A DNA stretch of 33,201 bases from a virus (taxonomy: Duplodnaviria > Caudoviricetes): positions 1-33,201 of IMG/VR virus record IMGVR_UViG_3300044681_000374, one strand, 5' to 3'. Position 1 is the first letter of the stretch. Each line of letters starts with the position of its first letter. Of the stretch, positions 1-31,269 are shown in pieces. The notes beneath the pieces were generated by a model. It was not told the origin of the DNA. It did not search any database and saw only the letters and a list, made by a program, of their open reading frames with translations. The translations under genes and the position numbers were made by a program.

Positions 1-540
1 AATGCGGCCGATCTGCAGGGGCACGACGAGGAGACCGCTGCCGCCCTGGCTGCAGCGATCGCCGAAGCGATCGGGCAGGGCGAAGCAAAGCCCGCAGCCG
101 CCCGGCTGGATGCCGCCGAGGCTGTCCTAGAGGCCTGGCCCGTTGAGACCCGCTGGGGCGGCACCCGCGCCTGTTACAGCCCGGCCATGGATCGAATCTC
201 CATGCCTGCCGCCGAGGCCTTCACCACCCGCGAGGCGATGGCGGCCACCTGGGCCCACGAACAGAGCCACAGCACCGGCCACAAGAGCCGGCTCGACCGG
301 GCCATGGGCGGATCCTTCGGCAGCCAGTCCTACGCCAGGGAAGAACTGGTGGCCGAGCTGTCAGCGGTGCTGATCTGCTACCGGCTGCAGATCGGCTGCC
401 AACTGGAGAACCATGCCGCCTACCTCAAGGATTGGGCCCAGATCCTCAAGGACGGCGGGCCACGGGTGCTGTTCCAGGTGCTCAGCGACGCCCGCAAGGC
501 TGCCGATTTGATCGCCCCCGAAGCGATCGAGGAGGCCTGA
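1..540 (+). CDS. ardC: ArdC-like antirestriction/ssDNA-binding protein, C-terminal zincin (MPTase) domain; 5' truncated
   Basis: Frame is open from base 1 (NAADLQG...). Motifs ACYSPAMDRISMP, HEQSHSTGHKSRLDR, YAREELVAEL and HAAYLKDW are typical of ArdC. Confidence 0.88.
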   Translation, partial: NAADLQGHDEETAAALAAAIAEAIGQGEAKPAAARLDAAEAVLEAWPVETRWGGTRACYSPAMDRISMPAAEAFTTREAMAATWAHEQSHSTGHKSRLDRAMGGSFGSQSYAREELVAELSAVLICYRLQIGCQLENHAAYLKDWAQILKDGGPRVLFQVLSDARKAADLIAPEAIEEA

Positions 541-543
541 GCC

Positions 544-975
544 ATGCAGGACGCCATCCACCCGCGGGCAGGCGAGCTGCCCCGCACCTACCGGCACCCC
601 AGGCACCTATGGGTATTCGATCTGCCTGCCATGGAATGCGGGATCTGGCTGGCCCGATTCCGCATTGATGCCAGGGCGTGGGCCGCCCACAAAGCCGGGA
701 ACGGTTACGAGCCATCTTGGCGAGTGCCTGCGATCGTCTGGCAGGCAGAGCCGGCCGGCGGCGGCTGGCTGCCATGGGTCCCAGTTGCCGGGCACATCGA
801 GCACCCGGCAGCGCTGCCGCTGTCGCTGAAAGAGGCGCACGCCATGGCGAGGGAATGGCGCCCGCTGTTCCCTGGCTCGCTGGTTGCCGTCCGGCCACGG
901 GATGCGGGCCCGCCTGTCTACCCCGACGCAATGCACGACGCCTACGACCTGCCGCCCTATGCGGACGGCTACTGA
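544..975 (+). CDS. Hypothetical early protein (143 aa)
   Basis: ATG 3 nt after the ArdC stop, preceded by GGAGG; Trp/Pro-rich; no family recognised. Confidence 0.6.
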   Translation: MQDAIHPRAGELPRTYRHPRHLWVFDLPAMECGIWLARFRIDARAWAAHKAGNGYEPSWRVPAIVWQAEPAGGGWLPWVPVAGHIEHPAALPLSLKEAHAMAREWRPLFPGSLVAVRPRDAGPPVYPDAMHDAYDLPPYADGY

Positions 976-1043
976 TCCCATCCCGGAGGCCTGCGGGCCT
1001 CCCTGCTGGGTTCACCAGCACCACCACAACCACACCCCGAACC

Positions 1044-1232
1044 ATGCTCACCATCAGCACCACAGAGGCTGCCTTGCTGGCTGCCCTGCTCCGTCCAAGG
1101 GTCACAGCGCTCAGCGAACTGCTGGCCGCCCAAATCCAATGCTTGCCACCTGGCGATTCCAGTTGGGCCGACACCGAGGACCAGCTGGAGACCGCCCGGG
1201 CTGCCCTCTCCAAGGTGGAGGCGATCCGATGA
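1044..1232 (+). CDS. Small hypothetical helical protein (62 aa, MLTISTTEAALL...)
   Basis: ATG follows a CAC-rich leader; stop overlaps the next ATG (ATGA). Confidence 0.65.
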   Translation: MLTISTTEAALLAALLRPRVTALSELLAAQIQCLPPGDSSWADTEDQLETARAALSKVEAIR

Positions 1233-1375
1233 AGCGCTTTCTGCGGTTGATCACCCCGCTGCGCGTGCCGCTGCTGTTCGTGGTCATCCTCGCCGGCTGG
1301 CCCCTGGTGCTGCCCCTGGCCTGGGTCGCCCTGCTGGGCTTCTGCGTGGTCTGGCTGGCCAGGGGGAAGCGATGA
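1229..1375 (+). CDS. Small membrane protein (48 aa, MKRFLRLITPLRVPLLFVVILAGWPLVLPLAWVALLGFCVVWLARGKR)
   Basis: ATGA-coupled at both ends, GGAGG upstream, long hydrophobic stretch flanked by basic residues. Confidence 0.65.
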   Translation: MKRFLRLITPLRVPLLFVVILAGWPLVLPLAWVALLGFCVVWLARGKR

Positions 1376-1707
1376 GCGCCACCCCTGCAGACGTTGCCGC
1401 CATGCTGCGCGGCATCCGGGCCCACCATCAGGCGATCAGCGCCAGCGCAGTTGAGACGCTTTTGCACGTCGCAACAGGCGCAGACTGCAGCGCCGAACTC
1501 TGCCGCCGGATGGGGGTAGTGCGCCAAACCGTCAACCGGAACCTGCAGCACCTAGTAGGCCGCGGCCAGGTGGGCAAAGGTCGGGTTAGATCCAGGCTGG
1601 GGCTGGTGCAGCGGTCGAAACACCCAGACCGCAAAGGGTTTCGGCTTGAGCTCACAGAGAACGGCCGCGAACTGTTGGCTAGTACATTTGGACCATTTGA
1701 GCCATGA
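1372..1707 (+). CDS. MarR-like winged helix-turn-helix regulator 1
   Basis: HTH CSAELCRRMGVVRQTVNRNLQHL and wing GLVQRSKHPDRKGFRLELTENGR. Confidence 0.8.
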   Translation: MSATPADVAAMLRGIRAHHQAISASAVETLLHVATGADCSAELCRRMGVVRQTVNRNLQHLVGRGQVGKGRVRSRLGLVQRSKHPDRKGFRLELTENGRELLASTFGPFEP

Positions 1708-1834
1708 GGGTACGGCTGCTGGCAACTGTCTGCGTCCCTATCACAGGGCGATGGCTGGAGTGGTCGCTATGGGTTGAGAGCCATGGCGGCAGGCGCCGGC
1801 TTTCTCTGCAGCGGTGCCAAAGTGCGGGCAGTAG

Positions 1835-2167
1835 GTGTCACCTAGGACCGTGGATCTCCCTGCACTGGCCTTGGCCTTAGGCACTTTTGCCGCCCAAGAC
1901 CCAACCCGTTTCCCGCTGCATCACGCCCGCCTGTTCTTGGAGGTCGCGCTGAACGAGCCGGCCACCTTCGAGCACCTGGAGCAGGCCTTGAACCTGACCA
2001 ACTCCAGCGTTTCCCGTTCTGTCGCTGCCCTCAGCGATCGGAACCGCCACGGCGACCGCGGCTATCGGCTGCTCACCGTGGAACGCGACCCCGAGGAGGG
2101 GCGACGCTTCCTGGTCCGCTTGAGCCCTAAAGGCCGGCTGCTCCTGCAGCAGCTGCAGCGGATCTGA
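1835..2167 (+). CDS. MarR-like winged helix-turn-helix regulator 2 (alternative GTG start at 1850)
   Basis: HTH LEQALNLTNSSVSRSVAAL and wing RDPEEGRRFLVRLSPKGR; lies directly upstream of the integrase. Confidence 0.85.
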   Translation: MSPRTVDLPALALALGTFAAQDPTRFPLHHARLFLEVALNEPATFEHLEQALNLTNSSVSRSVAALSDRNRHGDRGYRLLTVERDPEEGRRFLVRLSPKGRLLLQQLQRI

Positions 2168-2201
2168 TCACACCACCACCACCACCACCAACAGAACCAC
2201 C

Positions 2202-3188
2202 ATGACCGGATCAGTTCGCCGCACGGCGGACGGCTGGATTGCCGATGTGACCATCGGCGGCACCCGCCGCACTGCCAAGCGCCGCACCAAGACCGAAGCC
2301 ATCGAGGCCAAACGCCAGCTGCTGGAGCTCCTGGTAGCCCGCGGCAGGGGCGAGCCGGACGGCATCACCATCACCGATGCCCGGGCCCTCTCCCTCCGCA
2401 TCCGCTGGGCTGGCAAGGCCTTCGAGCGGACCGCAGCCATCTACAGCCAAGCCGCCGTGGATCACTTCGGCCCGCTCACCCAGCTGGGGAGCATCACCGC
2501 GCCAGCCGTGGAGGAGTGGCGACAGCTGCTGCTGCGCGGCGGCAACCGCCCCGGCACCGTTAACGCAAAGGTCAGCTGTCTGCGGGCCATGTTCAGCGAT
2601 GCCGTGCTCCATGGACACCTGGCTGCCATCCCGCCGCTGCCCCGGCAGCTGACCAACCGCAACACCAAGGACCGCATCTTCTCGGATGCTGAGATCGCAG
2701 CGTTCTGCGATCGGTTCCATGCCGCAGGCCATCCCGCCGCGGCCGACCTTTTCATCTTCCTGCTGGAGACCTGCTGCAGGTGGGGGGAAGCCGAGCGACT
2801 GCGTGGGGGTGATGTGGATGTGGAGCGCCAGCGTGTCACCTTCTGGGAGACCAAGGCCAACCGGGCCCGCAGCGTGCCGCTCACCCGCCGCGGCCTGGAT
2901 GCCCTGCTGCCCCACCTGCCGGCCGTGCCGGGCCATCGGGTCTGGCCCTACCGCTACGGGCAGTTCAAGTGGCTGTTTGAGCGGGCGAAGGAGGGGCTGG
3001 GGATCAATGACCCTGCCCTAACGATCCACTGCACCCGCCACACCTGCGCGAGCAAGCTGGCGACCAAGGGGATCCCGCTCCACCAGCTGATGGCCTTCGG
3101 CGGCTGGACTTCCCTCCAGAGCGTGCAGCGCTACCTGCACCTGCACACCGATGCCCTGGCCAGCTGCGTGGCAGCGCTTGAGGCCTAA
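2202..3188 (+). CDS. int: Tyrosine recombinase/integrase
   Basis: Catalytic R (TCCRWGE), K (ETKANR), HxxR (HCTRH), W (GGWTS) and Y (QRYLH); N-terminal arm-binding-like segment GWIADVTIGGTRR. Confidence 0.95.
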   Translation: MTGSVRRTADGWIADVTIGGTRRTAKRRTKTEAIEAKRQLLELLVARGRGEPDGITITDARALSLRIRWAGKAFERTAAIYSQAAVDHFGPLTQLGSITAPAVEEWRQLLLRGGNRPGTVNAKVSCLRAMFSDAVLHGHLAAIPPLPRQLTNRNTKDRIFSDAEIAAFCDRFHAAGHPAAADLFIFLLETCCRWGEAERLRGGDVDVERQRVTFWETKANRARSVPLTRRGLDALLPHLPAVPGHRVWPYRYGQFKWLFERAKEGLGINDPALTIHCTRHTCASKLATKGIPLHQLMAFGGWTSLQSVQRYLHLHTDALASCVAALEA

Positions 3189-3192
3189 CTGT

Positions 3193-3266
3193 GGATGCGT
3201 CCACCGGATCACGGGAGGATGCAAACTGGGTGCGGTTGGATGCCGAAATCGGCACCCGCCGCACCC
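3193..3266. repeat. Cluster of GGRTGC hexamers, candidate integrase arm-type sites
   Basis: GGATGC at 3193, 3217 and 3238, GGGTGC at 3228; inverted GCACCC at 3252 and 3261. Further inverted GCATCC copies lie across the core at 3356 and 3463. Confidence 0.5.
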
Positions 3267-3301
3267 TTCTCATTTCCTGAGAAGCCTTGCCACAACTGGC
3301 C

Positions 3302-3343
3302 GGGGGTCTAGCTATCTGGTGAAAGCAGCGGACTCATAATCCG
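3302..3343 (+). other. attP core: 5' half (42 bp) of a tRNA with CAT anticodon (elongator Met or Ile2); not a complete tRNA
   Basis: GGGGGTC-TA-GCTATCTGGTGAAAGC-A-GCGGA-CTCATAA-TCCG gives acceptor 5' strand, U8A9, D arm and anticodon stem-loop (CAT at 3335-3337). No T arm or 3' acceptor strand follows. It starts 114 bp after the int stop. Confidence 0.88.
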
Positions 3344-3352
3344 TTTTCCAGT

Positions 3353-3368
3353 TCTGCATCCCTGCAGA
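3353..3368. promoter_or_regulatory. Palindromic box TCTGCA-TCCC-TGCAGA (copy 1, between att core and RNAP)
   Basis: Perfect 6-4-6 palindrome; the same motif recurs at five other module starts. Confidence 0.65.
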
Positions 3369-3456
3369 TGTCCGGCCAGGACTGCAGACCACCACCCACT
3401 GATCAAGTCTGCGGGGGTGGGGTGTAATAAGTGCATCGCGCTACAGATGCCGCACC

Positions 3457-5856
3457 TTGTCCGCATCCGGCAATTCCTACACACCCCCGGAGGAGCGCCA
3501 GCGGCATCTGGAATCGGCGGCTCAGGAGGCCGCCGCCAACCGCTCGCGCATCGCCCGGGCCAAGCTCAAACAGCAGGAAAAAGAGAGCGCCACCGAATAC
3601 GGGCGGGCACTGTTCCAGGCCCACGGCGAGCGGGTGGCGCTGGCGCTTGAGCACAAGCTGGGCAAGGCGCTGAACCGCGAAGAGGTGGCCGGGCCCTATT
3701 ACGCCGGCATGTGGCTGCTGTTCCAGCTGGGTGACAAGGGGCCCCGCTCGATCGCTGCTGTTGCCCTGGGGGTGGTGCTCGATCGGATCAGCAAACCCAC
3801 CACCCACCGGGCTATGGCATCCGCCATCGGCCAGGCGATCGAGACGGAGATCAGGGCGCTGCCGATCGAGGACCGTGGGCAGGACTTGCTGCGCATCGCT
3901 CGCCGGCGGCACGGCAAGCGGCTGGCATCAAAGGCACGGCTGGAGCAGCTGCGCATCCAGGTGACGCCCTGGTCTGCTGCCGATCGCTTCCAGGTGGGCG
4001 CCTTCCTGCTGGAGATCATCACCACCGAAACCGAGCTGCTGCGAACGACGAAGCAGCCAGGGCGCCGCGGCCTGCAGCTGGCGCCAGCGCCCGTGGTGGC
4101 CGAGATCATCGCCGCCCATCCGCCCACACCTGCCAAGGCCCGCCGGCTGCCGATGCTCACCCCGCCCAGGCCATGGGAGGGGATGACGGGCGGCGGACAC
4201 CTCAGCAACACCGAACCGCTGGTGCGCAGCCGCAAGGGGCACCCGATCGACTACCTCACCACCGAGGCCCTGCAGCCAGCGCTGCGGGTGGTGAACACCC
4301 TGCAGGAGCAGCAGCTGCTGCTGGATCCATGGATGGTGGGCAATCAGCGCATTGCCTGGGATGCCAACTTGCGTGGGCTGTTCCCGATCCTGCGGGATCC
4401 GATCGAGGCCCCGCCCAAGCCGGTTGAGCTGGTGGGCAAGGAGGCCATGGCCCGCTGGCATCAGCAGGAGCAGGCCTTCCACCGTGACCGGATCGAAGGC
4501 CGCCACGCCCGCAACCAGATCGAGAGCTCCATCCGCCAGGCCGAGCAGCTGGCCGGCGAGCAGCTCTGGTTTAGCTGGTGCATGGACATGAGGGGCAGGC
4601 TCTACACCGCCAACCGGCTCACCACCCACCAGGGCCCCGACCATGAGAAGGCCCAGATCCTGATTGCCAACGCCAGGCCCTGCGACGACCGCGCCGCCGA
4701 CTGGATTCTCAAGGCCGCCGCGATCCACTGGGGCATGAAGGGCAGCTGGGTGGACCGGCTGCAGTTCGGCCGCGATCAGATCGAGCGGATGCTGGCCGCG
4801 GCCGAGGACCCGCTCGAGCGGGTACACCTATGGCGTGATGCCAAGGAGCCGTGGCAGTTCCTGGCCTGCTGCCGGGCCATCCAGCAGTGGATCGAGGACC
4901 CCAGCCAGCCGATCCATCAGCCGGTGCGACTGGATCAGACCAGCTCCGGCCCGGGCATTATCGGCGCCCTGCTCAGGGATCGAGGGCTGGCCCGGGCCTG
5001 CAATCTGATCGGCTCCACCCGCCATGACCTCTACACCGAGCTGGCCGAGGAGGTGACGCTGCTGCTGCGCTCCGATCTGGAGGCCGGCGACGCCAAGGAG
5101 CAGCGGCACGCGGGTTGGTGGCTGGAGCGGGGCATCACCCGCAACATGGCCAAGATCCCTGTCATGTCAACGGTTTACGGGGCGAAGCTGCTGGGTGTGA
5201 CCGAGCAGCTGGTGGCACTGCTCGATGAATCAGAGGGCACGGTGTCCCTGGGCCGGCTGGAGCGCGAGCGGCTGCTGCCCTGCCGCTACCTGGCGCGGAA
5301 GTTCGGCCTGGCTGTTGGCGCCAGGCTGGGTGGCGCCGTGGCGTTCCAGGCCTGGCTGCGGGCCGTGGTGCGGTGCTGCAGCGCCGTGAACAAGCCGATG
5401 CAGTGGACGACGCCGATGGGGCTGCTGATCCGGCTAGGCAAGGAGCTCACCGCCAGCAGCGGGGTGAAGTCGCTGCTGCATGGCACCCGCCGATGGCAGA
5501 CGCTGCTGGATGCGCCGCCGCCGGGGAAGCTCAGCGCCCTGGAGACCGGGCGGGCCATCACCGCCAATCTGATCCACAGCTTCGACGCCGCCTTGGTGTG
5601 GGCAATGGTCTGCGATGGTGCAGACAAAGGCGTAACGGTGCTGCCCAATCACGACTGTTTCGCCGTGCCGCCGTGCGATGCCGAGTGGCTGCACAGCACG
5701 CTTCTGTGGCGCACCGGGGAGCTCTACCGGCCGGACTGGTTGGCTGAGATCACGGCCGAAATCCAGGCTACGGCTGAGGTGAAGCTGCCAGCCCCGCCGA
5801 TGGTGGACACGCTGGAGGTGGGGCTGATCGGCAGGAATGCCTATCTGTTCTCCTAG
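3457..5856 (+). CDS. T7-like single-subunit DNA-directed RNA polymerase
   Basis: DMRGRLY, motif A (RLDQTSSG), motif B (RNMAKIPVMSTVYG), NLIHSFDA, motif C (HDCF). The TTG start is uncertain. Confidence 0.96.
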   Translation: MSASGNSYTPPEERQRHLESAAQEAAANRSRIARAKLKQQEKESATEYGRALFQAHGERVALALEHKLGKALNREEVAGPYYAGMWLLFQLGDKGPRSIAAVALGVVLDRISKPTTHRAMASAIGQAIETEIRALPIEDRGQDLLRIARRRHGKRLASKARLEQLRIQVTPWSAADRFQVGAFLLEIITTETELLRTTKQPGRRGLQLAPAPVVAEIIAAHPPTPAKARRLPMLTPPRPWEGMTGGGHLSNTEPLVRSRKGHPIDYLTTEALQPALRVVNTLQEQQLLLDPWMVGNQRIAWDANLRGLFPILRDPIEAPPKPVELVGKEAMARWHQQEQAFHRDRIEGRHARNQIESSIRQAEQLAGEQLWFSWCMDMRGRLYTANRLTTHQGPDHEKAQILIANARPCDDRAADWILKAAAIHWGMKGSWVDRLQFGRDQIERMLAAAEDPLERVHLWRDAKEPWQFLACCRAIQQWIEDPSQPIHQPVRLDQTSSGPGIIGALLRDRGLARACNLIGSTRHDLYTELAEEVTLLLRSDLEAGDAKEQRHAGWWLERGITRNMAKIPVMSTVYGAKLLGVTEQLVALLDESEGTVSLGRLERERLLPCRYLARKFGLAVGARLGGAVAFQAWLRAVVRCCSAVNKPMQWTTPMGLLIRLGKELTASSGVKSLLHGTRRWQTLLDAPPPGKLSALETGRAITANLIHSFDAALVWAMVCDGADKGVTVLPNHDCFAVPPCDAEWLHSTLLWRTGELYRPDWLAEITAEIQATAEVKLPAPPMVDTLEVGLIGRNAYLFS

Positions 5857-5861
5857 AGGTA

Positions 5862-5890
5862 TTGCCTAGGAGGCTCCTAGGTGCCATGCT
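5862..5890 (+). promoter_or_regulatory. Candidate sigma70-type promoter (TTGCCT-N17-CATGCT) overlapped by inverted repeat CCTAGGAG-G-CTCCTAGG (5865-5881)
   Basis: Read directly in the RNAP-SSB intergenic gap; 17-bp spacing. Confidence 0.4.
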
Positions 5891-5901
5891 GCAGCAGCAA
5901 C

Positions 5902-5917
5902 TCTGCACCCATGCAGC
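5902..5917. promoter_or_regulatory. Palindromic box TCTGCA-CCCA-TGCAGC (copy 2, 4 nt before the SSB start)
   Basis: Recurrent intergenic motif. Confidence 0.65.
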
Positions 5918-5921
5918 ACAA

Positions 5922-6572
5922 ATGCCGCGAGAACTGATTGTGACCCCAGTGGGCGAAGCCTGGTGGGCGAAATTGTTTGAGCCTGAGCAGGATCGCTTCG
6001 AGGAGGACAAGCCTCGGCAGTGGTCGATTGAGTGGGCTGGCCCGCAGAACAGCCGCGAGGTGTTGGGCCTCATGCAGACCATCGAGGCCGAGTTTGCTCG
6101 CCTCAACGGCGATGGCGCCAAGCCCAGCAAGAACGCCTGGCCGTTCAAGGAGCAGACCGACAAGGAAGGCAACCCCACCGGGCTGCTGGCGTTTCGGATG
6201 CGCAAGAACGAAACCACCAAGAAGGGCAAGGTGCTCCAGGCGCCGGCCATCTACGACAGCCACAAGAACCCATGGCCTGCCGACACCCTGATCGGCAATG
6301 GCAGCAAGGTGAAGGTGGCTTTCAGCTGTTACGGCTGGGAGGACAAGTTCGGCAAGAAGGGCATCAGCCTCAGTCTTGAGGCGGTGCAGGTGCTGGATCT
6401 GGTGCCCTACGAGCAGCGCGATCCCGGCGACGCCTTCGGAGTGGAGAACGGCTATGTGGTGGACACCCCGGCCGATGCGTTTGGCGGCGGCGACAAGGAG
6501 CTGAGCCCAAGCCAAAAGCTCCAGCGCCAATGGCAAGGCGAAGAACCGAGCGAAGAGGAAGTGCCCTTCTGA
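5922..6572 (+). CDS. ssb: Single-stranded DNA-binding protein, T7 gp2.5-like
   Basis: TPVGEAWWAKLFEP, IGNGSKVKVAF, GISLSLEAVQVLDLV and acidic tail EEEVPF. Start placed at ATG 5922. Confidence 0.9.
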   Translation: MPRELIVTPVGEAWWAKLFEPEQDRFEEDKPRQWSIEWAGPQNSREVLGLMQTIEAEFARLNGDGAKPSKNAWPFKEQTDKEGNPTGLLAFRMRKNETTKKGKVLQAPAIYDSHKNPWPADTLIGNGSKVKVAFSCYGWEDKFGKKGISLSLEAVQVLDLVPYEQRDPGDAFGVENGYVVDTPADAFGGGDKELSPSQKLQRQWQGEEPSEEEVPF

Positions 6573-6952
6573 TGAACACGCGATCAGCTGACTTTGAGCT
6601 GCCGCTGCCGCTCCAGCCCAAGGAGCGGCCCCGCTTTTCTGGCCATGCTTACAACAGCAAGAAGTATCGAGACTGGATGAAGCAATGCCGAGCAATTCTC
6701 GGCGAGTGGTGGACAGTCCCACCGCTTGAAAAGGGCCAGCTGATCGCCGTTTACCTCCTCTTCCGTGGCCCTGGCACCAGTGATCTCGACAACCTCTGCG
6801 GGGCAGTAATGGATGCCGGCAAAGGTATCCTCTGGGCCGACGATCGGGTAACGGTCATCAGACGAATTGAGGCCCAGTGGGAGCGGGCCACCAAGAAACA
6901 ACAATCCATTCTTCTAAAGGTGATTTGGGATGACGCTTACTGCCGTTGCTAA
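6572..6952 (+). CDS. rusA: RusA-family Holliday junction resolvase
   Basis: PKERPRF, DLDNL...VMDA..GILWADDR catalytic pattern; TGATG coupling to SSB. Confidence 0.85.
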   Translation: MNTRSADFELPLPLQPKERPRFSGHAYNSKKYRDWMKQCRAILGEWWTVPPLEKGQLIAVYLLFRGPGTSDLDNLCGAVMDAGKGILWADDRVTVIRRIEAQWERATKKQQSILLKVIWDDAYCRC

Positions 6953-7895
6953 CCCGATTGTCATTTCGCAGTATCAAGTTCTGCTGGATGACATCGAACA
7001 GGCCAAGAAGGAGGCCGCGCCCTCCTTCGACTACGAAACAAAAGAGGGCGACAAAGCCGCCCGCAGCTACATCTTCAAGTTGCGCAAGCTCCGTGCTCGG
7101 GTCGAGTCCGCACGCAAGGAGGCAAAGGCCTACAGCATTGCCTACGGGAAGCGGGTTGACGAGCAGGCCAAGGACCTCAGCAGCCAGGTGGACGAGCTGA
7201 TTCAGCCCCACCAGGAGCAGCTTGAGGCCATCGCTCTCCGCGAGGCTGAGCGGGTCGCGGCGCATCAGCTCGTCCTCGATCAGGCTGAGCACATCGGCGT
7301 GGTCGGCTTTGGCGAGGGATCGGCTCAAATCCAGGGCCGGCTCGACGCCCTGGACGAAATCAGTCTTGAGGGGCTGGAGGAGTTTACCGAGAAGGTGGCT
7401 GCGGCCATCGTGACTTCTCGGAAAACGCTGCAGCAGGCGCTGCAGCAGGCGCTGCAGGCTGAGGAGCAAGCCATCGAGCTGGCCAGGCTCAAGGCTGAAC
7501 AGGACGAGCGCGAAGCCAGGGAGCGCGAGGAGCGCATCAGGCGCGAAGCCCAAGAGAGGGCCGACGACGAAGCGGCCCAGGCGGCAGCGGACGCCATCGC
7601 AGCAGCCGAGGCCAGGGCCGCCGCCGCCGAAGCCAAAGCGGCTCAAGCGGAGGCCGCAGCCAGTCGGCCGCCAGCAGTGGCTGCGGCTCCCGCTAAGGCC
7701 GACGCGCCCGCCGAAATGGAGCACGGCACTTTCGTTGTCGAACTTCCGACGCCCCCGGCCAAAAAGGCGTTGGCCATCAACGTGCTCGAAGTAAGCATGA
7801 TCGGCATGAATCGCCGCCAAGTAGCGGAGGCAATCGTCGCGGGCCGCCTACATCCGAGCCTGCAAGTCCGTATTCACTGGGACCTACTCAAATGA
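6930..7895 (+). CDS. Coiled-coil phage protein (321 aa), resembling proteins of lambdoid recombination regions
   Basis: DYETKEGDKAARSYIFKLRK...KRVDEQAK N-terminus followed by a long E/A/R-rich helix. Confidence 0.7.
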   Translation: MTLTAVANPIVISQYQVLLDDIEQAKKEAAPSFDYETKEGDKAARSYIFKLRKLRARVESARKEAKAYSIAYGKRVDEQAKDLSSQVDELIQPHQEQLEAIALREAERVAAHQLVLDQAEHIGVVGFGEGSAQIQGRLDALDEISLEGLEEFTEKVAAAIVTSRKTLQQALQQALQAEEQAIELARLKAEQDEREAREREERIRREAQERADDEAAQAAADAIAAAEARAAAAEAKAAQAEAAASRPPAVAAAPAKADAPAEMEHGTFVVELPTPPAKKALAINVLEVSMIGMNRRQVAEAIVAGRLHPSLQVRIHWDLLK

Positions 7896-8068
7896 ACAAT
7901 CACGGCTATCCACCGCAAAATAAGCAGTCCTGTGCGAACTGCTATTACTACATCAGAGCTGCGTGCCGTCGCCGCGCTCCAGACCCGCCCTTGCGAATGG
8001 CGTATTGGCCATGCGTCATGAGCGACGAGTGGTGCGGCGAATGGGCCCCGAAGGAGGTGAGCCAATGA
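7892..8068 (+). CDS. Small Cys-rich protein (58 aa; CANC...CRRRAP...WPCVMSDEWCGEW), absent from the ORF track
   Basis: Translated by hand; ATGA-coupled at both ends; the CxxC...CRR.AP...WP...WCGE pattern is common in small phage metal-binding proteins. Confidence 0.75.
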   Translation: MNNHGYPPQNKQSCANCYYYIRAACRRRAPDPPLRMAYWPCVMSDEWCGEWAPKEVSQ

Positions 8069-8634
8069 GGTGCCCACATTGCGGTTGGAACAACACCAAG
8101 GTCGAAGAAACCCGGCCACGGGAGGAAGGCGATCTGCGATACCGACGCTGCCTTAGTTGCTGCCAGCGTTTCACCACCATGGAGCGGGTGTGCATCAACG
8201 ACCCAGGCGCCGCTGGTTATCTCGACGCGCATCCCCTGCGGGTGGTGCCGGAGCCCCAGCAACCCGCCAAGGCACCGGCCAAGGCCGCCCGCACTGCCCG
8301 GTTCATGCCGGACGAGGTGCCCGAGGAGTTCGGCATCACCCCCGAGGCCGCCCCGCTGCTGCTGCAGTGGTGGCGCGAAAGCCGCCGCAGCAAGCACGGC
8401 AGCAAAGCCACCTGGACTGAGGCTGCCTGGCTGGGCAGCGTTGTCCGGGTGGGCCGGCTGCCGGCTGCCAAGCAGGTCGAGCTCTGCACCGCTGGAGTGG
8501 AGAACGGCTGGCAGGCGCTGCGGGAGGAGTACCTGGGCAGCCACAAGCCGCTCGGCCTGCCGCAGATGGGCCGCCGGCCCATGCCCAAGGACCCCGCCAT
8601 GCTCGCCGCGCTGGAGGAGCCATGGCCGGCCTGA
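8065..8634 (+). CDS. NrdR-type zinc ribbon fused to a replication-initiator-like C-terminal domain (189 aa)
   Basis: Strong RBS AAGGAGGT at 8051. MRCPHCG..TKVEETR...RYRRCLSCCQRFTTMERV matches the NrdR N-terminus but no ATP cone follows; the C-terminus WWRESRRSK...AGVENGWQAL resembles phage replisome-organiser tails. Confidence 0.6.
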   Translation: MRCPHCGWNNTKVEETRPREEGDLRYRRCLSCCQRFTTMERVCINDPGAAGYLDAHPLRVVPEPQQPAKAPAKAARTARFMPDEVPEEFGITPEAAPLLLQWWRESRRSKHGSKATWTEAAWLGSVVRVGRLPAAKQVELCTAGVENGWQALREEYLGSHKPLGLPQMGRRPMPKDPAMLAALEEPWPA

Positions 8635-9140
8635 CTGCCGAGACCTTCCTGGCGGTTGCCGAAATGGTGGCCGGCCACCTGCGGCTCAAGGAGGCCGACC
8701 GCTGGAGTCCCCATGTCTGCCGGCTCAAGCTCCACAGCTTCAAAGCTGAGTTCCCCGAGGTGAACGACCCGCAGCTGATGTGGGCCGCCGAGAGGTGGAT
8801 CCAGTCCACCGACCCCCAGGCGTTCCATCGCTTCCCGATCTGGGCTGAGCTGATGGCACCGCTGTACCGGACCGAGGGCGGGCTGGCGAATCGCAGCTGG
8901 GGCCCCAAAGAGGACCTGCCGAAGTTCGTTCAGTTCAAGCCCGCCCAGCTGGCGCTGCTGCCCGAGGCGCCCGCCTCGATCCATGCCGCGCCCGACCCGG
9001 CCAATGCCCAGGCCTATGCGCTGGTGCAGGGCAGCCAGCGCCCAGCGCTCCCGCCCGCCGAGGAGGCCCAGGGCCTCACCGATGAGCAGTGGCAGGCCTA
9101 CCTGCAGCAGGTGCGGGAGGAGGCGACATGCAGCCCCTGA
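8622..9140 (+). CDS. Putative helicase loader/inhibitor-like protein (lambda P / SPP1 G39P-like position and pattern)
   Basis: Overlaps the previous gene; AAERWIQ...RFPIWAEL resembles the A...I.....FP..AE pattern of loader-inhibitor proteins. The function is an inference. Confidence 0.45.
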   Translation: MAGLTAETFLAVAEMVAGHLRLKEADRWSPHVCRLKLHSFKAEFPEVNDPQLMWAAERWIQSTDPQAFHRFPIWAELMAPLYRTEGGLANRSWGPKEDLPKFVQFKPAQLALLPEAPASIHAAPDPANAQAYALVQGSQRPALPPAEEAQGLTDEQWQAYLQQVREEATCSP

Positions 9141-9346
9141 TCAGCGGCACTGCACTGCAGGGGATCCTCGAAAAGGGTCTGCTCCAGGGGTACTGGTCGA
9201 TCGACCAGTTCAACCGGACGAGCAAGAAAGGCGAGCCGGTGTTGCCCACGCCTGGGTTCATCACCGAGCACCCGCAGTTCTTCGACCGGAGCCACCGCGA
9301 TCTCGATGCATACGCCAAAGGCGCGGGCAGGAGGGACTGGTTTTGA
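9128..9346 (+). CDS. Hypothetical protein (72 aa, MQPLISGTALQGILEKGL...)
   Basis: GGAGG RBS, overlaps neighbours, plausible codon usage. Confidence 0.65.
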   Translation: MQPLISGTALQGILEKGLLQGYWSIDQFNRTSKKGEPVLPTPGFITEHPQFFDRSHRDLDAYAKGAGRRDWF

Positions 9347-9570
9347 CCTGGCCCACTGAGTACGAGATCGGCCAGCCGGTGCGCGTCCACTACCAGGGCG
9401 GATGGCGCAGCGGCCAGGTGGTCTCCACCCGCACCCGCAGCTGCATGGTCCTGCTGGTGCGCGGCAGCAATCAGCAGACCATCAACATCCACGACCCCCG
9501 CAACATTCAGCCATGCCCCCCGCCAAAGACGACCGACTCGATGTTGAACGATCAGCTGTCCTTCGGCTGA
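9343..9570 (+). CDS. Small SH3/Tudor-like beta-barrel protein (75 aa)
   Basis: TTG start overlapping the previous stop; YEIGQPVRVHYQGGWRSGQVV pattern. Confidence 0.55.
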   Translation: MTWPTEYEIGQPVRVHYQGGWRSGQVVSTRTRSCMVLLVRGSNQQTINIHDPRNIQPCPPPKTTDSMLNDQLSFG

Positions 9571-9680
9571 GAAGTGATGCGCTGCAACGTGTGCAGCAAT
9601 CAGGCGAGAGTTTTTCTGGCCGCTGGTGGGATGGCTACCTGCAGGCTATCGACCACATCCTCGAAATGGAGAACGAATGA
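9513..9680 (+). CDS. Hypothetical protein (55 aa, ...WWDGYLQAIDHILEMENE)
   Basis: Stop overlaps the next ATG; C-terminal pattern familiar from small cyanophage proteins. Confidence 0.6.
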   Translation: MPPAKDDRLDVERSAVLRLRSDALQRVQQSGESFSGRWWDGYLQAIDHILEMENE

Positions 9681-9907
9681 TGCACTGGAGCGAATCAAAA
9701 ATCTACGAGCTTGAGGGCCCGCAGCCTGTCATCGGCCCAGGCCGCAGCCGCCCAAAACCAACTGAGTCATCCAGGCTGTATCGGCTCCGGGTCAAGCTGC
9801 CCGGCAAACCACAGATGACGGTCACGCTGCCAGCGCCCACCCGAGGCAAAGCAATCATGTACTGCAAGAACCGCTGGCCAGGTTGTGATGCGGAGGTGGT
9901 GGAGTGA
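9677..9907 (+). CDS. Hypothetical protein (76 aa, ...AIMYCKNRWP)
   Basis: ATGA/GTGA coupling on both sides; GGAG RBS. Confidence 0.65.
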   Translation: MMHWSESKIYELEGPQPVIGPGRSRPKPTESSRLYRLRVKLPGKPQMTVTLPAPTRGKAIMYCKNRWPGCDAEVVE

Positions 9908-10203
9908 GCACTGATTTCAGAGAGCTGTGCGCTGAGCTGCTGAAAGGGCTGGACGAAAATCGCCACCCCGAGGTGCGGTATCCGGGGCATTTGCGGATCA
10001 CTATGGCCAACGCCCGCGCCGCCCTAGCACAGCCCGGAGGTGGGCTAGTGGAGAGGGTGCATAGCTGCATCGTGGGCGAGCCGCCGTGCGGCCACATGCA
10101 GGCCCGCGCCGCCATCCGCGAAGTCGCAGCAGCTGCCAAGGATCTCCGGTTCACCACCGCCAAGGCCCTGATCGCTTGGCTGGAGCGGGAGGCATCGCGA
10201 TGA
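9904..10203 (+). CDS. Hypothetical protein with TDFRxLCAEL N-terminus (99 aa)
   Basis: GGAGG RBS, coupled start; N-terminal motif familiar from freshwater cyanophage small proteins. Confidence 0.65.
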   Translation: MSTDFRELCAELLKGLDENRHPEVRYPGHLRITMANARAALAQPGGGLVERVHSCIVGEPPCGHMQARAAIREVAAAAKDLRFTTAKALIAWLEREASR

Positions 10204-10436
10204 AGCCATCCACGCTTGATCTCGGCGGCGGCATGACTGCCAGTGCCCACCGTGGCGGCCCGTCCGGTCGCTACTTCGTTGGCTACTCCAAAGGCATCAG
10301 CGGTCTGTTCGATGGCATCGAATCGCTGCGCCGTTTTCTTCGCCTCCCACCTGGGACGCCAAGCCGTCAGGCCTTTGACGAATGGGCAAACAGCCTTGAA
10401 CACCCCGAGCCGACCACGAATGAAAGCCCTGATTGA
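10200..10436 (+). CDS. Hypothetical protein (78 aa, MKPSTLDLGGG...)
   Basis: GGAGG RBS and ATGA coupling. Confidence 0.6.
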   Translation: MKPSTLDLGGGMTASAHRGGPSGRYFVGYSKGISGLFDGIESLRRFLRLPPGTPSRQAFDEWANSLEHPEPTTNESPD

Positions 10437-11160
10437 TACCGAGGTCTATCTGTTCCGCGCTGCTGCAGCGTGCGAAATGGAAGCCGAGTGGGCCCCTGAC
10501 GACTGGACCTACATCTGCCGCCACGGTGATGCGCAGGCCCAGTTCCAAGACCAGATCGCAGAGCTGCTCGACCAGCTGCCGGGTCTCCAGCCGGTGCTGG
10601 TGTTCTCCGCTGGCGTCAGCTTCCGCTATGGCATCTGGCGCTGGTACAAGGCCAACCGCAAGAAGTACCGCAAGCCAGCCGGCTACCGGCAGCTCAGGCA
10701 GTGGGTTGCCCAGGCCGCACCATCCCGCGGCTGGCAGGTGGTCGAGCTGCCCGACATTGAAGGCGATGACGTGCTCGGCGTGCTCTACGAACAGGGCGAC
10801 GTGATCGTGTCGATCGACAAGGACATGCTCACCCTGCCCGGCTACCACCTGCGGGATGGCCAAATCATTGAGGTGTCCCGGCACGACGCGGACATGGCGT
10901 TCTACACCCAGGCCCTGGTCGGTGACACCAGCGACAACTACCCCGGCTGCCCGGGCTATGGGCCCGTCGCTGCAGGGAAGGCTCTAGCCGGGTGCTCAAC
11001 CGAGAGTGAAATGTGGGCGGCAGTTGTTGCCGCCTTCGCCAAGAAAGGCCTCGATGAGCGCTATGCCATCCAGCAAGCCCGCTGCGCTCGCATCCTTCGG
11101 CCCGGCGAATACGACCTGGACAGCCACACTGTCCGCCTATGGGAGCCCCCGGTAGCCTAA
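10420..11160 (+). CDS. 5'-3' exonuclease, T7 gp6-like
   Basis: MKALIDTE, YKANRK, EGDDVLG, SIDKDM and LVGDTSDNYPGCPGYGP motifs. Start placed at ATG 10420. Confidence 0.93.
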   Translation: MKALIDTEVYLFRAAAACEMEAEWAPDDWTYICRHGDAQAQFQDQIAELLDQLPGLQPVLVFSAGVSFRYGIWRWYKANRKKYRKPAGYRQLRQWVAQAAPSRGWQVVELPDIEGDDVLGVLYEQGDVIVSIDKDMLTLPGYHLRDGQIIEVSRHDADMAFYTQALVGDTSDNYPGCPGYGPVAAGKALAGCSTESEMWAAVVAAFAKKGLDERYAIQQARCARILRPGEYDLDSHTVRLWEPPVA

Positions 11161-11165
11161 GGAGG

Positions 11166-11181
11166 TCTGCACAGGTGCAGT
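11166..11181. promoter_or_regulatory. Palindromic box TCTGCA-CAGG-TGCAGT (copy 3, start of the virion module)
   Basis: Recurrent motif, 5 nt after the exonuclease stop and overlapping the next GTG. Confidence 0.65.
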
Positions 11182-11748: not shown

Positions 11749-11750
11749 CC

Positions 11751-12134
11751 ATGTGCACAGGATCCAGCCCAAGCCGCCCGAAGGTGAAGGAGGTGGGGCC
11801 AAGCAAGAAGGAGATGAGGCAGCAGAAGAAGGAGATCCGCGGGTTGAAGGCAGAGATCCGCGACACCCAAAAGGATTTCCGCCAGCAGTTGCAGGCCCAG
11901 ATTGATGCGGCGAACGCTGCAGCGGAAGAGGCCGCAGCCGAGGCCGCTGCGCAGATGGCAGCGATGGAGCTGGCCAACTCCCAGCCCGTCTACAAGGTTG
12001 AGACCACCCAGCAGGAAGCTGTCTCACCCCAGGTCACCCAGCCCGTCCAGCCGCAGCAGCCGATCCGCACCACCGGCAGCCTGACGATCGGGGCCCGCCG
12101 CGCTCCGGCCACTGGTCTGAACATCGGCCGATGA
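11751..12134 (+). CDS. gp6.7/7.3-like small virion protein B
   Basis: Starts MCTGS and ends SLTIG...TGLNIGR; ATGA-coupled to the portal. Confidence 0.7.
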   Translation: MCTGSSPSRPKVKEVGPSKKEMRQQKKEIRGLKAEIRDTQKDFRQQLQAQIDAANAAAEEAAAEAAAQMAAMELANSQPVYKVETTQQEAVSPQVTQPVQPQQPIRTTGSLTIGARRAPATGLNIGR

Positions 12135-13768
12135 CCGCAGAAGCCCGCTACAAGAAGCTCGAACCAGCTCGCAACCACTGGATCGACCGTGGCCGCGAGG
12201 CGGCGGCATTGACGCTGCCATGGCTGCTGCCATTCGATGGCGACCCGGAGCCCCAGGCGCTGGAGAAGATCAGCCACCCGTGGGATGGCATCGGCCAGCG
12301 GGGCGTCCACAACATCGCCAGCCGGCTGCTGCTGGCCCTGCTGCCGCCCACGGAAACCTTCTTTCGGTTCGTCCACGACGACATGGAGTTCGCCCGGCAG
12401 CAGGCACAGCTGGCGGCAGAAGGGATGCCGCCCGAGCGGATCGCTGAGCTCAAGACCCAGATCGACAAGACCCTGGGGCTGATGGAGCGGGCGGTGCTGC
12501 GCAGCATCGAAACCAGCAACGACCGCACCGCGCTGCATGAAGCGCTGCTGCACCTGATCGTGGCCGGCAACTGCATGGCCTATGTCCCCGAGGACGGTTG
12601 CAAGGTGTTCAACCTCTACCGCTACGTCCTGCGGCGCGACCCGATGGGCAAGCCGCTGGAGGCGATCGCCTGTGAGCGGATCCCGGCGGATGAGCTTCCC
12701 GAGGCGGCCCGCAAAATCCTCGACCAGGCCGAGCCGATGGAGGCCGTCTACGAGGACCTCCCCGGCGGCGGGCGAGAGGAGCAACCCGACGAGCGCATGG
12801 TCAAGGTCTACACCCACATCCGCTGGGAGGGGGGGAAGTGCCGCTGGTATCAGGAGCTTAAAGGCCGCCGCATTGAGGGCAGCGAGGGCAGCTCAGACCG
12901 CGACGTGGCGCCCTGGATTCCGCTCCGCATGTTCCGTATCGACGCGGAGGACTACAGCCCCGGCTATGTCGAGGCGGCGTGCATGGCGGATCTACAGACC
13001 GCGAACGCCCTAACCCAGGCCCTGACCGAGGGTGCGCTGGTCAGCGCCATCTGCAAGTTCCTGGCCAAGCCCGGCGCCGCTGTCACTGCCAAGCAGTTCA
13101 ACGAGGCCGCTAACGGCGCCTGCCTCACCGGCAACCCGGAGGACATCACCGCTGTGCAGGTGGGCAAGGGCAGCGACCTGGCCGTGGCCGAGCAGCGGCT
13201 GCAGCGGGTGCAGGCCCGGCTGGCGACCGCCTTCATGCTGAGCGACATCCGCGACAGTGAGCGCACCACCGCCGAGGAGGTGCGGCTGCAGGCGCAGCAG
13301 ATCGAGAACAGCCTGGGCAGTGTCTACTCGATCCTTACGACCGAGTTCCAGTACCCCTACATCAGCCGCCGGCTGCACCTGCTCACCAGGGCGGGCGGCT
13401 TGCCGCCGCTGCCGGACAAGTCGATCAAGCCGGTGGTGTCGGTGGGTCTGGCAGCCGTGGGCCGGGGCAATGACCTGGAGCGGCACGCCCGCTTCATGCA
13501 GATCCTGCAACAGACGATCACCCCCGAAGGCACGCTGGAATACCTGATGCCCACCGAGCTCATCAGCCGGCTGGCGGCAGCCATGGGCATCGACACCGTG
13601 GGCCTGATCAAGACCCAGGAGCAGATCGCCAAGGAGCAGGCCGCTGCCCAGCAGGCCGCCCAGCAGCAGGCGCTCATGCAGTCGGCGATGGCCGACCCGC
13701 AGAAGCTGGCCACCGCCGCGGCCACCGTTCAGGACATGCAACAACCCACTGACGAGCCCTCTGGGTAA
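12131..13768 (+). CDS. Portal (head-to-tail connector), T7 gp8-like
   Basis: GQRGVHNIASRLLLALLPP, LHLIVAGN, YVLRRDPMG, RDSERTTAEEVR and GLAAVGRGND. Confidence 0.96.
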   Translation: MTAEARYKKLEPARNHWIDRGREAAALTLPWLLPFDGDPEPQALEKISHPWDGIGQRGVHNIASRLLLALLPPTETFFRFVHDDMEFARQQAQLAAEGMPPERIAELKTQIDKTLGLMERAVLRSIETSNDRTALHEALLHLIVAGNCMAYVPEDGCKVFNLYRYVLRRDPMGKPLEAIACERIPADELPEAARKILDQAEPMEAVYEDLPGGGREEQPDERMVKVYTHIRWEGGKCRWYQELKGRRIEGSEGSSDRDVAPWIPLRMFRIDAEDYSPGYVEAACMADLQTANALTQALTEGALVSAICKFLAKPGAAVTAKQFNEAANGACLTGNPEDITAVQVGKGSDLAVAEQRLQRVQARLATAFMLSDIRDSERTTAEEVRLQAQQIENSLGSVYSILTTEFQYPYISRRLHLLTRAGGLPPLPDKSIKPVVSVGLAAVGRGNDLERHARFMQILQQTITPEGTLEYLMPTELISRLAAAMGIDTVGLIKTQEQIAKEQAAAQQAAQQQALMQSAMADPQKLATAAATVQDMQQPTDEPSG

Positions 13769-13791
13769 GTCTTTCCTTCCAACCTCTCGCC

Positions 13792-14025
13792 ATGGAACAA
13801 AACGAATCCTTCGGCCTTGTGCTTGCTGATCTCGATTCCGAGTTTCGGCACCGCTGGTCCCGTCGCGGATGGAACGGCCCTGGTCAATTCATCGAGCTGC
13901 AGGTCCCCGATGAGCACAGCAAGATGACCCTCCCTTACATCTTCATCACGACCGTTCAGGGCAGCCGAGTCCCCTGGCTTGCGAGCCAAACCGACCTGCT
14001 TGCCAAGGACTGGTACATCGTTTAA
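13792..14025 (+). CDS. DUF2829 / Thoeris anti-defence Tad2-like protein (77 aa)
   Basis: RRGWNGPGQF...PYIFI...VPWLASQTDLLAKDW signature. Confidence 0.85.
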   Translation: MEQNESFGLVLADLDSEFRHRWSRRGWNGPGQFIELQVPDEHSKMTLPYIFITTVQGSRVPWLASQTDLLAKDWYIV

Positions 14026-14078
14026 GCCCCACGGCCCGCCGGGAGCCGATCCCGGCACGCCATTGAGTTGCTCTGACC

Positions 14079-15035
14079 ATGACCACCACCCCGATCCAAC
14101 CCACTCCCGACCAGCTGGCCCTGGCTGGCCCCGGCTACGACAAAGACGCCCTGGCCGGCTTCCTGCAGGAGATCGCCGAGGAGGACCAGGCCCTGGCCGC
14201 CGGCACGCTGGAGCCCCCGGCGCCAGCGGTTGCCGCGCCCGACTTCCAGACCCTCAGCGTCGAAGGCGACGAGGTGGAGGGCCAGCAGGAGCAGGGCGAG
14301 CAGCGGCCCCTGGCCGGGAAGTTCAAGTCCGCCGAGGACCTGGAGAAGGCCTACCTGGAGCTCCAGAAGAAGCTGGGCCAGCGGCCTGCCGAACCGCCCG
14401 CCCCGTCCGAGCCGGTGGAGGTGAAGCCGCTCACCCGCGAGGAGGCCGTGGCCGGCTATGGCGAGACCGTGGTGGCCGCTGCCGAACAGGAGGGGATCGA
14501 CCTGGCGCAGTGGGATGCCGCTGTGCAGCGGGGCGAGGACACCAGCGAAATGCGGCAGAAGCTGGCCGGCGCCCTGGGCCTGCCCGAGGCGCTGATCGAG
14601 CGCTACGAGGCGGCCTACCGGCCGGCTGAGGACCAGCCCGAGCCCGCCAGTCTGAGCGATGAGGACGCCGCAGCGATCCGCGCTGAAGTGGGCGGCGATG
14701 CCAAGTTCGCCGAGCTCAGCCAGTGGGCCCGGGCCAATCTGAGCGAGGCTGAACTGGCCGACTACAACGATGCGGTGAACACCGGCAACCCGGCTGCTGC
14801 CCGCGCTGCAGTGCGCTGGCTGCAGGGCCGGGCCGCCACAGCGGACACGGAGCCGGCCCTGGTGATGGCCAGCGGCGGCACCGCCAACCCTGCTCTGGAT
14901 GTGTTCGAGACCGAGGAGGAGGCGATGGAGGCCAAGCAGGTGCTCACCAAAGGCGGCAAGCAGCGCTACCTGGTGGACGAGAGATACCGGCGTTACATCG
15001 ACGCCAAGTTTGCACGCTCGCCGATATTCCTGTAG
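14079..15035 (+). CDS. Capsid assembly scaffolding protein, T7 gp9-like
   Basis: LAGKFKSAEDLEKAYLELQKKLG and VGGDAKFAELSQWARANL; acidic; lies between portal and capsid. Confidence 0.92.
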   Translation: MTTTPIQPTPDQLALAGPGYDKDALAGFLQEIAEEDQALAAGTLEPPAPAVAAPDFQTLSVEGDEVEGQQEQGEQRPLAGKFKSAEDLEKAYLELQKKLGQRPAEPPAPSEPVEVKPLTREEAVAGYGETVVAAAEQEGIDLAQWDAAVQRGEDTSEMRQKLAGALGLPEALIERYEAAYRPAEDQPEPASLSDEDAAAIRAEVGGDAKFAELSQWARANLSEAELADYNDAVNTGNPAAARAAVRWLQGRAATADTEPALVMASGGTANPALDVFETEEEAMEAKQVLTKGGKQRYLVDERYRRYIDAKFARSPIFL

Positions 15036-15053
15036 AAGGTGTGCATGAGTACG

Positions 15054-15069
15054 TCTGCACTCACGCAGA
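15054..15069. promoter_or_regulatory. Palindromic box TCTGCA-CTCA-CGCAGA (copy 4, upstream of the major capsid gene)
   Basis: Recurrent motif in the scaffold-capsid intergenic region. Confidence 0.65.
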
Positions 15070-15142
15070 GCACAGGCCGGCCTAGGCCGACACCCTGATC
15101 GCAAAACCGTAGAGACGGCAGAGGCTCACAGCAAACCTTGCA

Positions 15143-16177: not shown

Positions 16178-16205
16178 CCTGGGAGGGGACACAACGGAGG
16201 CTTCT

Positions 16206-16234
16206 GCCCCACCTGCTCCTGGGTGGGGCTTTTT
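16206..16234 (+). terminator. Intrinsic terminator after the capsid gene (Tphi position)
   Basis: Stem GCCCCACC / GGTGGGGC with 8-nt loop, followed by TTTTT. Confidence 0.85.
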
Positions 16235-16255
16235 CATGGCTGCCGATAGCATTGG

Positions 16256-16271
16256 TCTGCACCGTCGCAGC
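16256..16271. promoter_or_regulatory. Palindromic box TCTGCA-CCGT-CGCAGC (copy 5, 3 nt before the tail tube A start)
   Basis: Recurrent motif just downstream of the terminator, preceded by TAGCATTGG. Confidence 0.65.
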
Positions 16272-16274
16272 GGT

Positions 16275-23551: not shown

Positions 23552-23583
23552 CAGCGCTGACCCAGCCCACCAGGAGATAACCC

Positions 23584-27711: not shown

Positions 27712-27713
27712 CC

Positions 27714-31220: not shown

Positions 31221-31249
31221 CCCGCCCCGCCAGGGCGCGGCAAGATTGG

Positions 31250-31265
31250 TCTGCAGCCGTGCAGA
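31250..31265. promoter_or_regulatory. Palindromic box TCTGCA-GCCG-TGCAGA (copy 6, 4 nt before the tail fibre start)
   Basis: Perfect palindrome preceded by CAAGATTGG. Confidence 0.68.
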
Positions 31266-31269
31266 ACTT

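Follow-up and report, generated by a model that had tools for sequence, protein, structure and literature searches.

The 33,201-bp virus contig analyzed here (IMG/VR record IMGVR_UViG_3300044681_000374, hereafter the window) is a fragment of approximately 65% GC from a freshwater T7-like cyanophage of clade S, a lineage that is already known. The phage keeps its own RNA polymerase (RNAP), single-stranded DNA-binding protein (SSB), Holliday junction resolvase, and exonuclease, and we consider it probable that a predicted helicase loader and a lambda O-like partner put host DnaB on its DNA. Papers are cited by PubMed Central identifier.

A clade S cyanophage without a T7 replisome

We scanned the 34 open reading frames (ORFs) of the window with Pfam and PHROGs. 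The parts named in an earlier reading of the sequence (the original prediction), namely an integrase, an attachment site (attP), two winged helix-turn-helix (wHTH) regulators, a T7-type RNAP, an SSB, an exonuclease, and virion genes, are all present, and every assigned gene lies on the + strand. The single-subunit RNAP (3457..5856; phrog_414 5e-123, PF00940) retains the motif A Asp, motif B Lys, and motif C His-Asp and, with a syntenic virion block (portal, scaffold, capsid, and tubular A/B), marks the window as T7-like (Autographiviridae per the record labels). The other retained genes encode a gp2.5-like single-stranded DNA-binding/annealing protein (5922..6572; phrog_112 7e-20), a RusA resolvase in the slot of T7 endonuclease I (6572..6952; PF05866 7e-8, phrog_140 5e-14), and a gp6-like 5′-3′ exonuclease (10420..11160; phrog_107 2e-54).

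The best phage match of the RNAP is that of the cultured Synechococcus phage S-SRP02 (46% identity), followed by three MedDCM fosmids (36-37%), with the rest at or below 26%. A quick RNAP tree of 33 rows, with 26 of the 80 loci described below hand-picked for spread and outgroups on long branches, puts the window, S-SRP02, and S38-C3 in one group (Shimodaira-Hasegawa approximate likelihood ratio test, SH-aLRT, 95). The original prediction had left open how new the lineage is and had named clustering with a characterised genus carrying this module as evidence against its reading. The window does fall with phages that share its module, in a clade already defined. Clade S (S-SRP02-like) comprises T7-like cyanophages without DNA polymerase, and S-SRP02 lacks the primase-helicase (PMC12695635), so the absence of both enzymes, which we also observe in the window, is already in print. 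The published definition uses nine core genes, whereas our grouping is by RNAP.

S-SRP02 (MW822601) and Stopalavirus S38-C3 (AP013548) share with the window the order MarR, integrase, RNAP, SSB, RusA, a Zn-ribbon NrdR fusion, a homolog of the gene at 8622, exonuclease, and virion genes, and likewise have no DNA polymerase or primase-helicase. They differ in that their RNAPs are only 46% and 36% identical to that of the window, in their attP region and accessory genes, and, for S38-C3, in an inverted early block. In the sub-branch with S38-C3 (L002), L073, and related loci, the MarR-integrase block is inverted or has moved away from the RNAP. The MPP-C (clade C) cyanopodoviruses, including P-SCSP1, are also T7-like and without DNA polymerase, and SPP1-style recruitment of host Pol III has been proposed for them as one of three options; unlike the window group, they keep the T7 primase/helicase as a core gene (PMC9860041), and their RNAP is ~26% identical to that of the window. 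Approximately half of marine autographiviruses are without at least one T7 replication gene (PMC12361551).

No polymerase, primase, or helicase family was matched among the 34 window ORFs. Because the window is a 33.2-kb fragment, we also searched relatives for PolA (PF00476), PolB (PF00136), DnaB (PF03796), Toprim (PF13155), and Prim-Pol (PF09250), each of which was found in 0/5. For the last four families, the relatives were three IMG/VR records that are 99-100% complete, S-SRP02, and MedDCM-S38-C3; for PF00476, the five included two IMG/VR records at least 90% complete. Positive controls matched in 10, 14, 14, 6, and 5 of 14 genomes (PF00476, PF03796, PF13155, PF00136, and PF09250, respectively). 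One IMG/VR relative has direct terminal repeats (DTR) and an RNAP 82% identical to that of the window; of its 21 ORFs without a window match, the 20 scanned gave tail, terminase, one unknown family, or nothing. The canonical T7 pairing of a family A DNA polymerase with the gp4 primase-helicase was thus found neither in the window ORFs nor in these relatives.

The S-SRP02 ortholog of the exonuclease, ORF34, is 246 aa long, matches phrog_107, and carries the annotation 'DNA polymerase I', the name under which the S-SRP02 paper lists it (PMC8790148). Judged by its sequence, this protein is an exonuclease, and the mis-annotation had entered a published phylogeny. A further S-SRP02 gene, p014 (L001:10903-11607), has a match to phrog_947 (2e-8), a family of DNA polymerase processivity factors; a sliding-clamp-like gene is in line with use of host Pol III.

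A conserved gene module with a predicted initiator and loader

Three genes between the resolvase and the exonuclease, here named by their start positions, form a conserved module. Gene 8065 (8065..8634; PF22811 1e-9) encodes an NrdR-type Zn ribbon (residues 1-42) and a conserved helical domain (residues ~90-160) and is a predicted initiator/adaptor. Gene 8622 (8622..9140) is predicted to encode, in its N-terminal ~80 aa, a helicase loader/inhibitor of the G39P fold, which is followed by a conserved C-terminal extension. Gene 9128 (9128..9346) encodes a 72-aa protein that is fused to the 8622 homolog in distant members and thus probably represents the loader's C-terminal part, split off as a gene of its own. 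Searching with the 8622 family yielded 118 confirmed stretches, from which we kept the best 80 loci, near-duplicates included. In 78/80 loci, the 8622 homolog is immediately preceded by the 8065 homolog (the other two contigs begin just before 8622), and in 80/80 the 9128 homolog lies downstream.

Comparison of the predicted 8622 model with 1NO1 points tentatively to a G39P-like fold in the N-terminal helical bundle. Other searches were negative: Foldseek of 8622 against the PDB returned nothing at E≤0.001, the PF11417 profile matched 0/119 family members at E≤1, hhalign of the family against SPP1 G39P and three homologs (a shallow alignment) gave a probability of 0.1, and hmmsearch of PDB sequences with the three family profiles gave 0, 0, and 1 irrelevant match. 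PF11417 itself gave two weak matches in 251 cyanobacterial genomes.

For gene 8065, 11/84 family members match phrog_678 (O-like initiator) at E≤0.1 (7.5e-4 to 0.08), always near profile positions 227-296, the C-terminal, O-like part; the window's own protein gives no match at this threshold. The nearest named Atlas clusters are Phg_2220_C and DnaT, although closeness of this kind is often chance per the Atlas. A structure search with the whole model returned the NrdR Zn ribbon only, with no DnaD-like chain for the C-domain among the 50 matches listed. Complex prediction for the 8065 C-terminal part with 8622 scored 0.01 against a mark of 0.32, and we use it neither for nor against an interaction. 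Lambda O-like initiators carry an N-terminal winged helix and iterons inside the gene. Gene 8065 has a Zn ribbon instead, and we found no iteron array in the 8065-type genes of the window, S-SRP02, and S38-C3, while two control genes showed clear arrays.

With SPP1 G38P/G39P/G40P and lambda O/P, a comparison group that includes Vibrionaceae VdhL1/2 (PMC11087808), the module may share a G39P-like fold (8622) and an O-like C-domain (8065), and it shows the initiator-then-loader order. It differs from these modules in that the initiator-like gene is without wHTH and iterons and sits in a genome of T7 type that encodes an RNAP. In SPP1, the gene for the phage helicase G40P follows the loader; none follows the loader in the window.

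We also considered small minus-strand genes beside terL (L001:9650-10024 and L235:8685-9092), which show a weak N-terminal phrog_678 match in 3/5 genomes. They were rejected as a split-off HTH (phrog_678 positions 55-127), as the same cutoff also drew matches from all 14 controls, and scanning the proteins encoded by these ORFs in S-SRP02 and one relative gave no family.

Sister phages and distant homologs

Oinezvirus S37-C6 and Nohivirus S31-C1 (MedDCM fosmids) resemble the window in having MarR-integrase, a RusA-type or equivalent small gene, an NrdR-type Zn ribbon, and the exonuclease. In the same slot, however, they carry a separate 61-87-aa Zn ribbon and then a Toprim+DnaB primase-helicase. 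Their Zn ribbons match that of the window, and tblastn at E≤1 detected neither an 8065 C-domain nor an 8622 homolog in these two phages. In the quick RNAP tree, the two are sister to all 29 module-bearing rows (SH-aLRT 95). Their virion block is on the opposite strand.

The 8622 profile matched 7/401 host-family genomes, comprising four clade members, two distant homologs, and one weak match. Repeat arrays inside a gene mark lambda-type initiators, and the two distant homologs each sit directly after a 415-420-aa gene with such arrays (one of which repeats a 21-mer 10 times); their contigs carry none of the other window genes. These loci (L225:4022-6110 and L140:497-3108) belong to non-T7 cyanobacterial elements in which an iteron-bearing initiator-like gene precedes the 8622 homolog and one further gene. 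By eye, though not by profile score, their C-domains and downstream genes look like 8065 and 9128; the L225 gene pair matched no PHROG family, and the next gene in L140 is RusA-like by eye. In addition, a low-GC siphovirus-like 41-kb contig in a cyanobacterial bin (L226-L227, G449:C13) encodes a protein with an Arc/RHH-like N-terminus and an O-like C-domain with a 2e-8 match to the phrog_678 region described above; behind it come a 9128-like gene, exonuclease, RusA, and Erf. Its ORFs ranked first outside the clade with both module profiles, weakly (E 0.06 and 0.11; 1,280 ORFs). Together, the mutual exclusion with the primase-helicase and the context of the distant homologs suggest that an initiator-loader cassette took the place of gp4.

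A model for replication and its alternatives

We hypothesize that the predicted G39P-fold loader (8622-9140 with 9128-9346), acting with the predicted lambda O-like partner (8065-8634), would load host DnaB onto phage DNA, which would in turn recruit host primase and Pol III. Such host-dependent replication, with an initiator recruiting the host replisome as the original prediction had it, is supported, as a prediction, by structure, weak profile matches, mutual exclusion, and distant-homolog context. An initiator C-domain and loader from a non-T7 cyanobacterial element may have replaced the primase-helicase gene in place, the incoming C-domain fusing to the resident Zn ribbon with loss of the wHTH and iterons. 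Since the latter two are absent, something else probably designates the origin, and the most plausible candidates are the Zn ribbon and transcription by the phage RNAP at the RNAP-SSB spacer. More tentatively, the whole clade may have swapped its primase-helicase for a lambda/SPP1-type cassette acquired from temperate elements of cyanobacteria, with the Zn ribbon and/or RNAP marking the origin for host DnaB. We rate the replacement module, with moderate support, as a plausible and apparently undescribed variant. The S-SRP02 homologs p028/p029 are given no replication role in the published accounts as available (PMC8790148, PMC12695635), and we found no assignment of an initiator or loader in a T7-like phage in the full-text literature, a search in which subscription journals were largely outside and on which the supplements of PMC12695635 and PMC12361551 may bear.

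Two sets of observations qualify this model. The first concerns how the genes were named: the original prediction spoke of genes typical of lambdoid phages, which is firm only for RusA, and the initiator and loader calls draw on weak structural, profile, and context evidence. Moreover, RusA is present in the primase-bearing relative S37-C6 too, and we rejected both it and the 321-aa gene described below (6/80 loci) as markers of a lambdoid module. It is conceivable, if rather unlikely, that 8622 blocks or redirects host DnaB without an initiator and that 8065 is a transcription regulator (NrdR/Ogr-like); replication would then begin at RNAP-made R-loops or at recombination intermediates (SSB annealing, exonuclease, RusA) taken up by the host restart pathway. 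Against such a regulator, the Zn ribbon stands alone in the primase-bearing sisters, and the added C-domain, which matches the O-like C-terminus, occurs only with 8622; the 8622 homologs elsewhere also sit behind iteron-bearing genes. The second set concerns what profiles may have missed: many small ORFs have no family, whole genomes were searched for five families, and the window lacks ~10 kb. We nevertheless judge it very improbable that some phage gene specifies a polymerase, primase, or helicase that has diverged beyond the reach of these profiles, given the 0/5 results with positive controls and the ease with which the diverged gp4 of the sister phages was detected. Furthermore, the listed ORFs of the DTR relative above 290 aa all match a window gene, tail, or terminase, a list that contains no ORF for a 1.6-kb stretch of its tail region.

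Integration site and lifestyle

The tyrosine integrase gene (2202..3188; PF00589 3e-19, phrog_1 4e-48) is followed by an attP core (3302..3343, + strand) that corresponds to the 5′ 42 nt of Cyanobium tRNA(CAT), with 40/42 identity. Both differences fall in one D-stem pair, 12-23, which changes from A-T to T-A, so that the attP half stays base-paired, suggesting selection for a working tRNA. The host-type tRNA copy is present in 23/32 genomes of the genus Cyanobium, and ARAGORN called tRNA-Met(cat) at 5/5 host loci tested. Among the sites, 24/26 are of host type; the two exact attP-type sites in Cyanobium genomes are on phage contigs. Nineteen of 45 integrase-RNAP spacers (duplicates included) match the tRNA(CAT) half at E<1e-4, one of them with C-G at that pair, and 10 further spacers show a weak match to a stretch with a TAA anticodon. 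In S31-C1 and L023, the integrase is followed by an entire tRNA instead of half of one. Recombination by the window integrase probably takes place in the anticodon arm of the Cyanobium tRNA(CAT), the phage contributing a functional 5′ half.

The window thus has an integrase and an attP matching a host site, as expected of a temperate phage, and the original prediction of a tRNA-integrating prophage stands as to the site; for the prophage itself, we found no junction. No attL/attR junction was present in contigs of four runs, one of which may be the source of the window, in any of 401 host-family genomes, or in viral contigs, with the limit that assemblies miss rare junctions. The single metagenome match was rejected, as it is an unrelated tRNA-Met/Arg/Leu cluster on a 50% GC contig with no window gene; that contig contains an entire tRNA(CAT) whose D-stem has the T-A pair seen in attP. 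The whole tRNAs of this contig, S31-C1, and L023 are found among the loci L233, L230:39797-39869, and L023. As no integrated copy was found, stable lysogeny is unproven.

T7-like phages with temperate features have been described before. LUZ100, like the window, has MarR and integrase before the RNAP, but it carries a full T7 replisome (PMC10134795). In S-TIP37 and P-SSP7, attP likewise equals a host tRNA's first half; the cyanophage attP sites known so far are perfect matches to tRNA-Leu (PMC8776855), whereas that of the window is tRNA(CAT) with the two-sided D-stem change. T7-like cyanophages with such sites, S-TIP37 and P-SSP7, integrate yet formed no stable lysogens (PMC8776855), and we see an even chance that the window phage likewise integrates transiently and is lytic in practice. 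The missing junction, with its lone unrelated match, fits transient integration, as do clade members that occur in host bins on phage-sized contigs with integrase and RNAP still adjacent, the behavior of the PMC8776855 phages, and the isolation of S-SRP02 as a lysing phage (PMC8790148). On the other hand, the integrase is kept in 5/5 further complete members, including those with the early block rearranged, the MarR-integrase pair is conserved, the D-stem is kept base-paired by a two-sided change, and assembled contigs drop rare junctions.

Palindromic sites

The motif CTGCA-N4-TGCAG occurs five times exactly in the window, compared to 0.16 expected (0/100 shuffles as high), and 10 times with one mismatch, compared to 3.5 expected. 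Sites lie upstream of the RNAP (3354..3367), upstream of the SSB (5903..5916), and at the start of the virion gene block (11167..11180), all on the + strand, with further sites at 15055 (capsid, one mismatch), 16257 (tail tube, one mismatch), and 31251 (tail fibre). These six thus precede the RNAP, SSB, first virion gene, capsid, tail tube, and tail fibre; one exact site is intragenic. The positions are kept in many relatives, and most of the loci that have no exact site come from distant members, in which variants appear instead.

The original prediction took these palindromes as operators of a regulon. The palindrome itself is well established, but the sites may equally well be promoters of the phage RNAP with the sequence TCTGCA-N4-(T/C)GCAG; we rate the two readings even, and both may hold. 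The placement before the six genes, the upstream T in 6/6 sites with the symmetric downstream A in only 3/6, and the 0 sigma-70-like promoters in 1-12000 suit a promoter, as does site 5903, which shares the core GCACCC with the 15-bp Syn5 promoter (PMC3950665) and, when aligned on that core, would have its final AG at +1/+2. In contrast, the near-perfect dyad symmetry favors a dimeric wHTH regulator, the 4-nt center is variable, distant members keep the symmetry with other letters, and sites also lie upstream of early genes in relatives.

A separate CCTAGG-based palindrome just after the RNAP stop (5865..5881, no strand assigned) may serve as an origin element or as an operator. The window has 15 CTAG tetramers, three of them clustered at 5853-5881, and paired CCTAGG recurs in this spacer in many relatives.

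Other features of the window

The contig starts inside a gene for an ArdC-like anti-restriction protein, of which the 3′ part remains (1..540; PF18818 4e-38, phrog_7245 1e-40). Two regulators follow, a first wHTH protein (1372..1707; MarR_2 9e-6, phrog_9665 4e-6) and a MarR-like candidate lysis/lysogeny repressor (1835..2167; phrog_9665 3e-19; 52% to S-SRP02 p020). The accessory gene at 6930..7895, which lies outside the conserved module, encodes a 321-aa coiled-coil-like protein (phrog_1376 2e-20). The T7-type virion block (12131..33201) comprises portal, scaffold, capsid, tail tube A/B, internal virion proteins, and tail fibre, the last cut by the contig end. No tRNA gene was found in the window, and a general repeat search of it returned tail-fibre low-complexity and chance families only.

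Between portal and scaffold lies a Tad2-like (Thoeris anti-defence 2) gene (13792-14025; PF11195 1e-18) with no tblastn match in any related locus, suggesting recent insertion. In the large internal virion protein (23584-27711), a stretch spanning residues 580-906 resembles part of phrog_21 (7e-42), a family that bears the label portal protein. The SSB is 86% identical in some near relatives (L003-L017 range) and 36-42% in others, in which the flanking genes are 82-95% identical, suggesting that the SSB gene is swapped often.

Implications

The textbook example of a self-sufficient replisome comes from T7-like phages. How polymerase-less cyanopodoviruses replicate was left open in PMC9860041 and PMC12361551. 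Clade S is without the primase-helicase too, and two of its genes, S-SRP02 p028/p029, labelled 'NrdR' and 'hypothetical', are the likely link to the host replisome, a question that REEP cyanophage genetics (PMC8776855) makes directly testable. The analysis also corrects an exonuclease mis-annotated as DNA polymerase I. If the proposed replacement is true, clade S would offer a clear example of a core replication gene being exchanged, in place, for non-homologous genes, and its hybrid origin mechanism, testable in cultured S-SRP02, would be one not described in any autographivirus.

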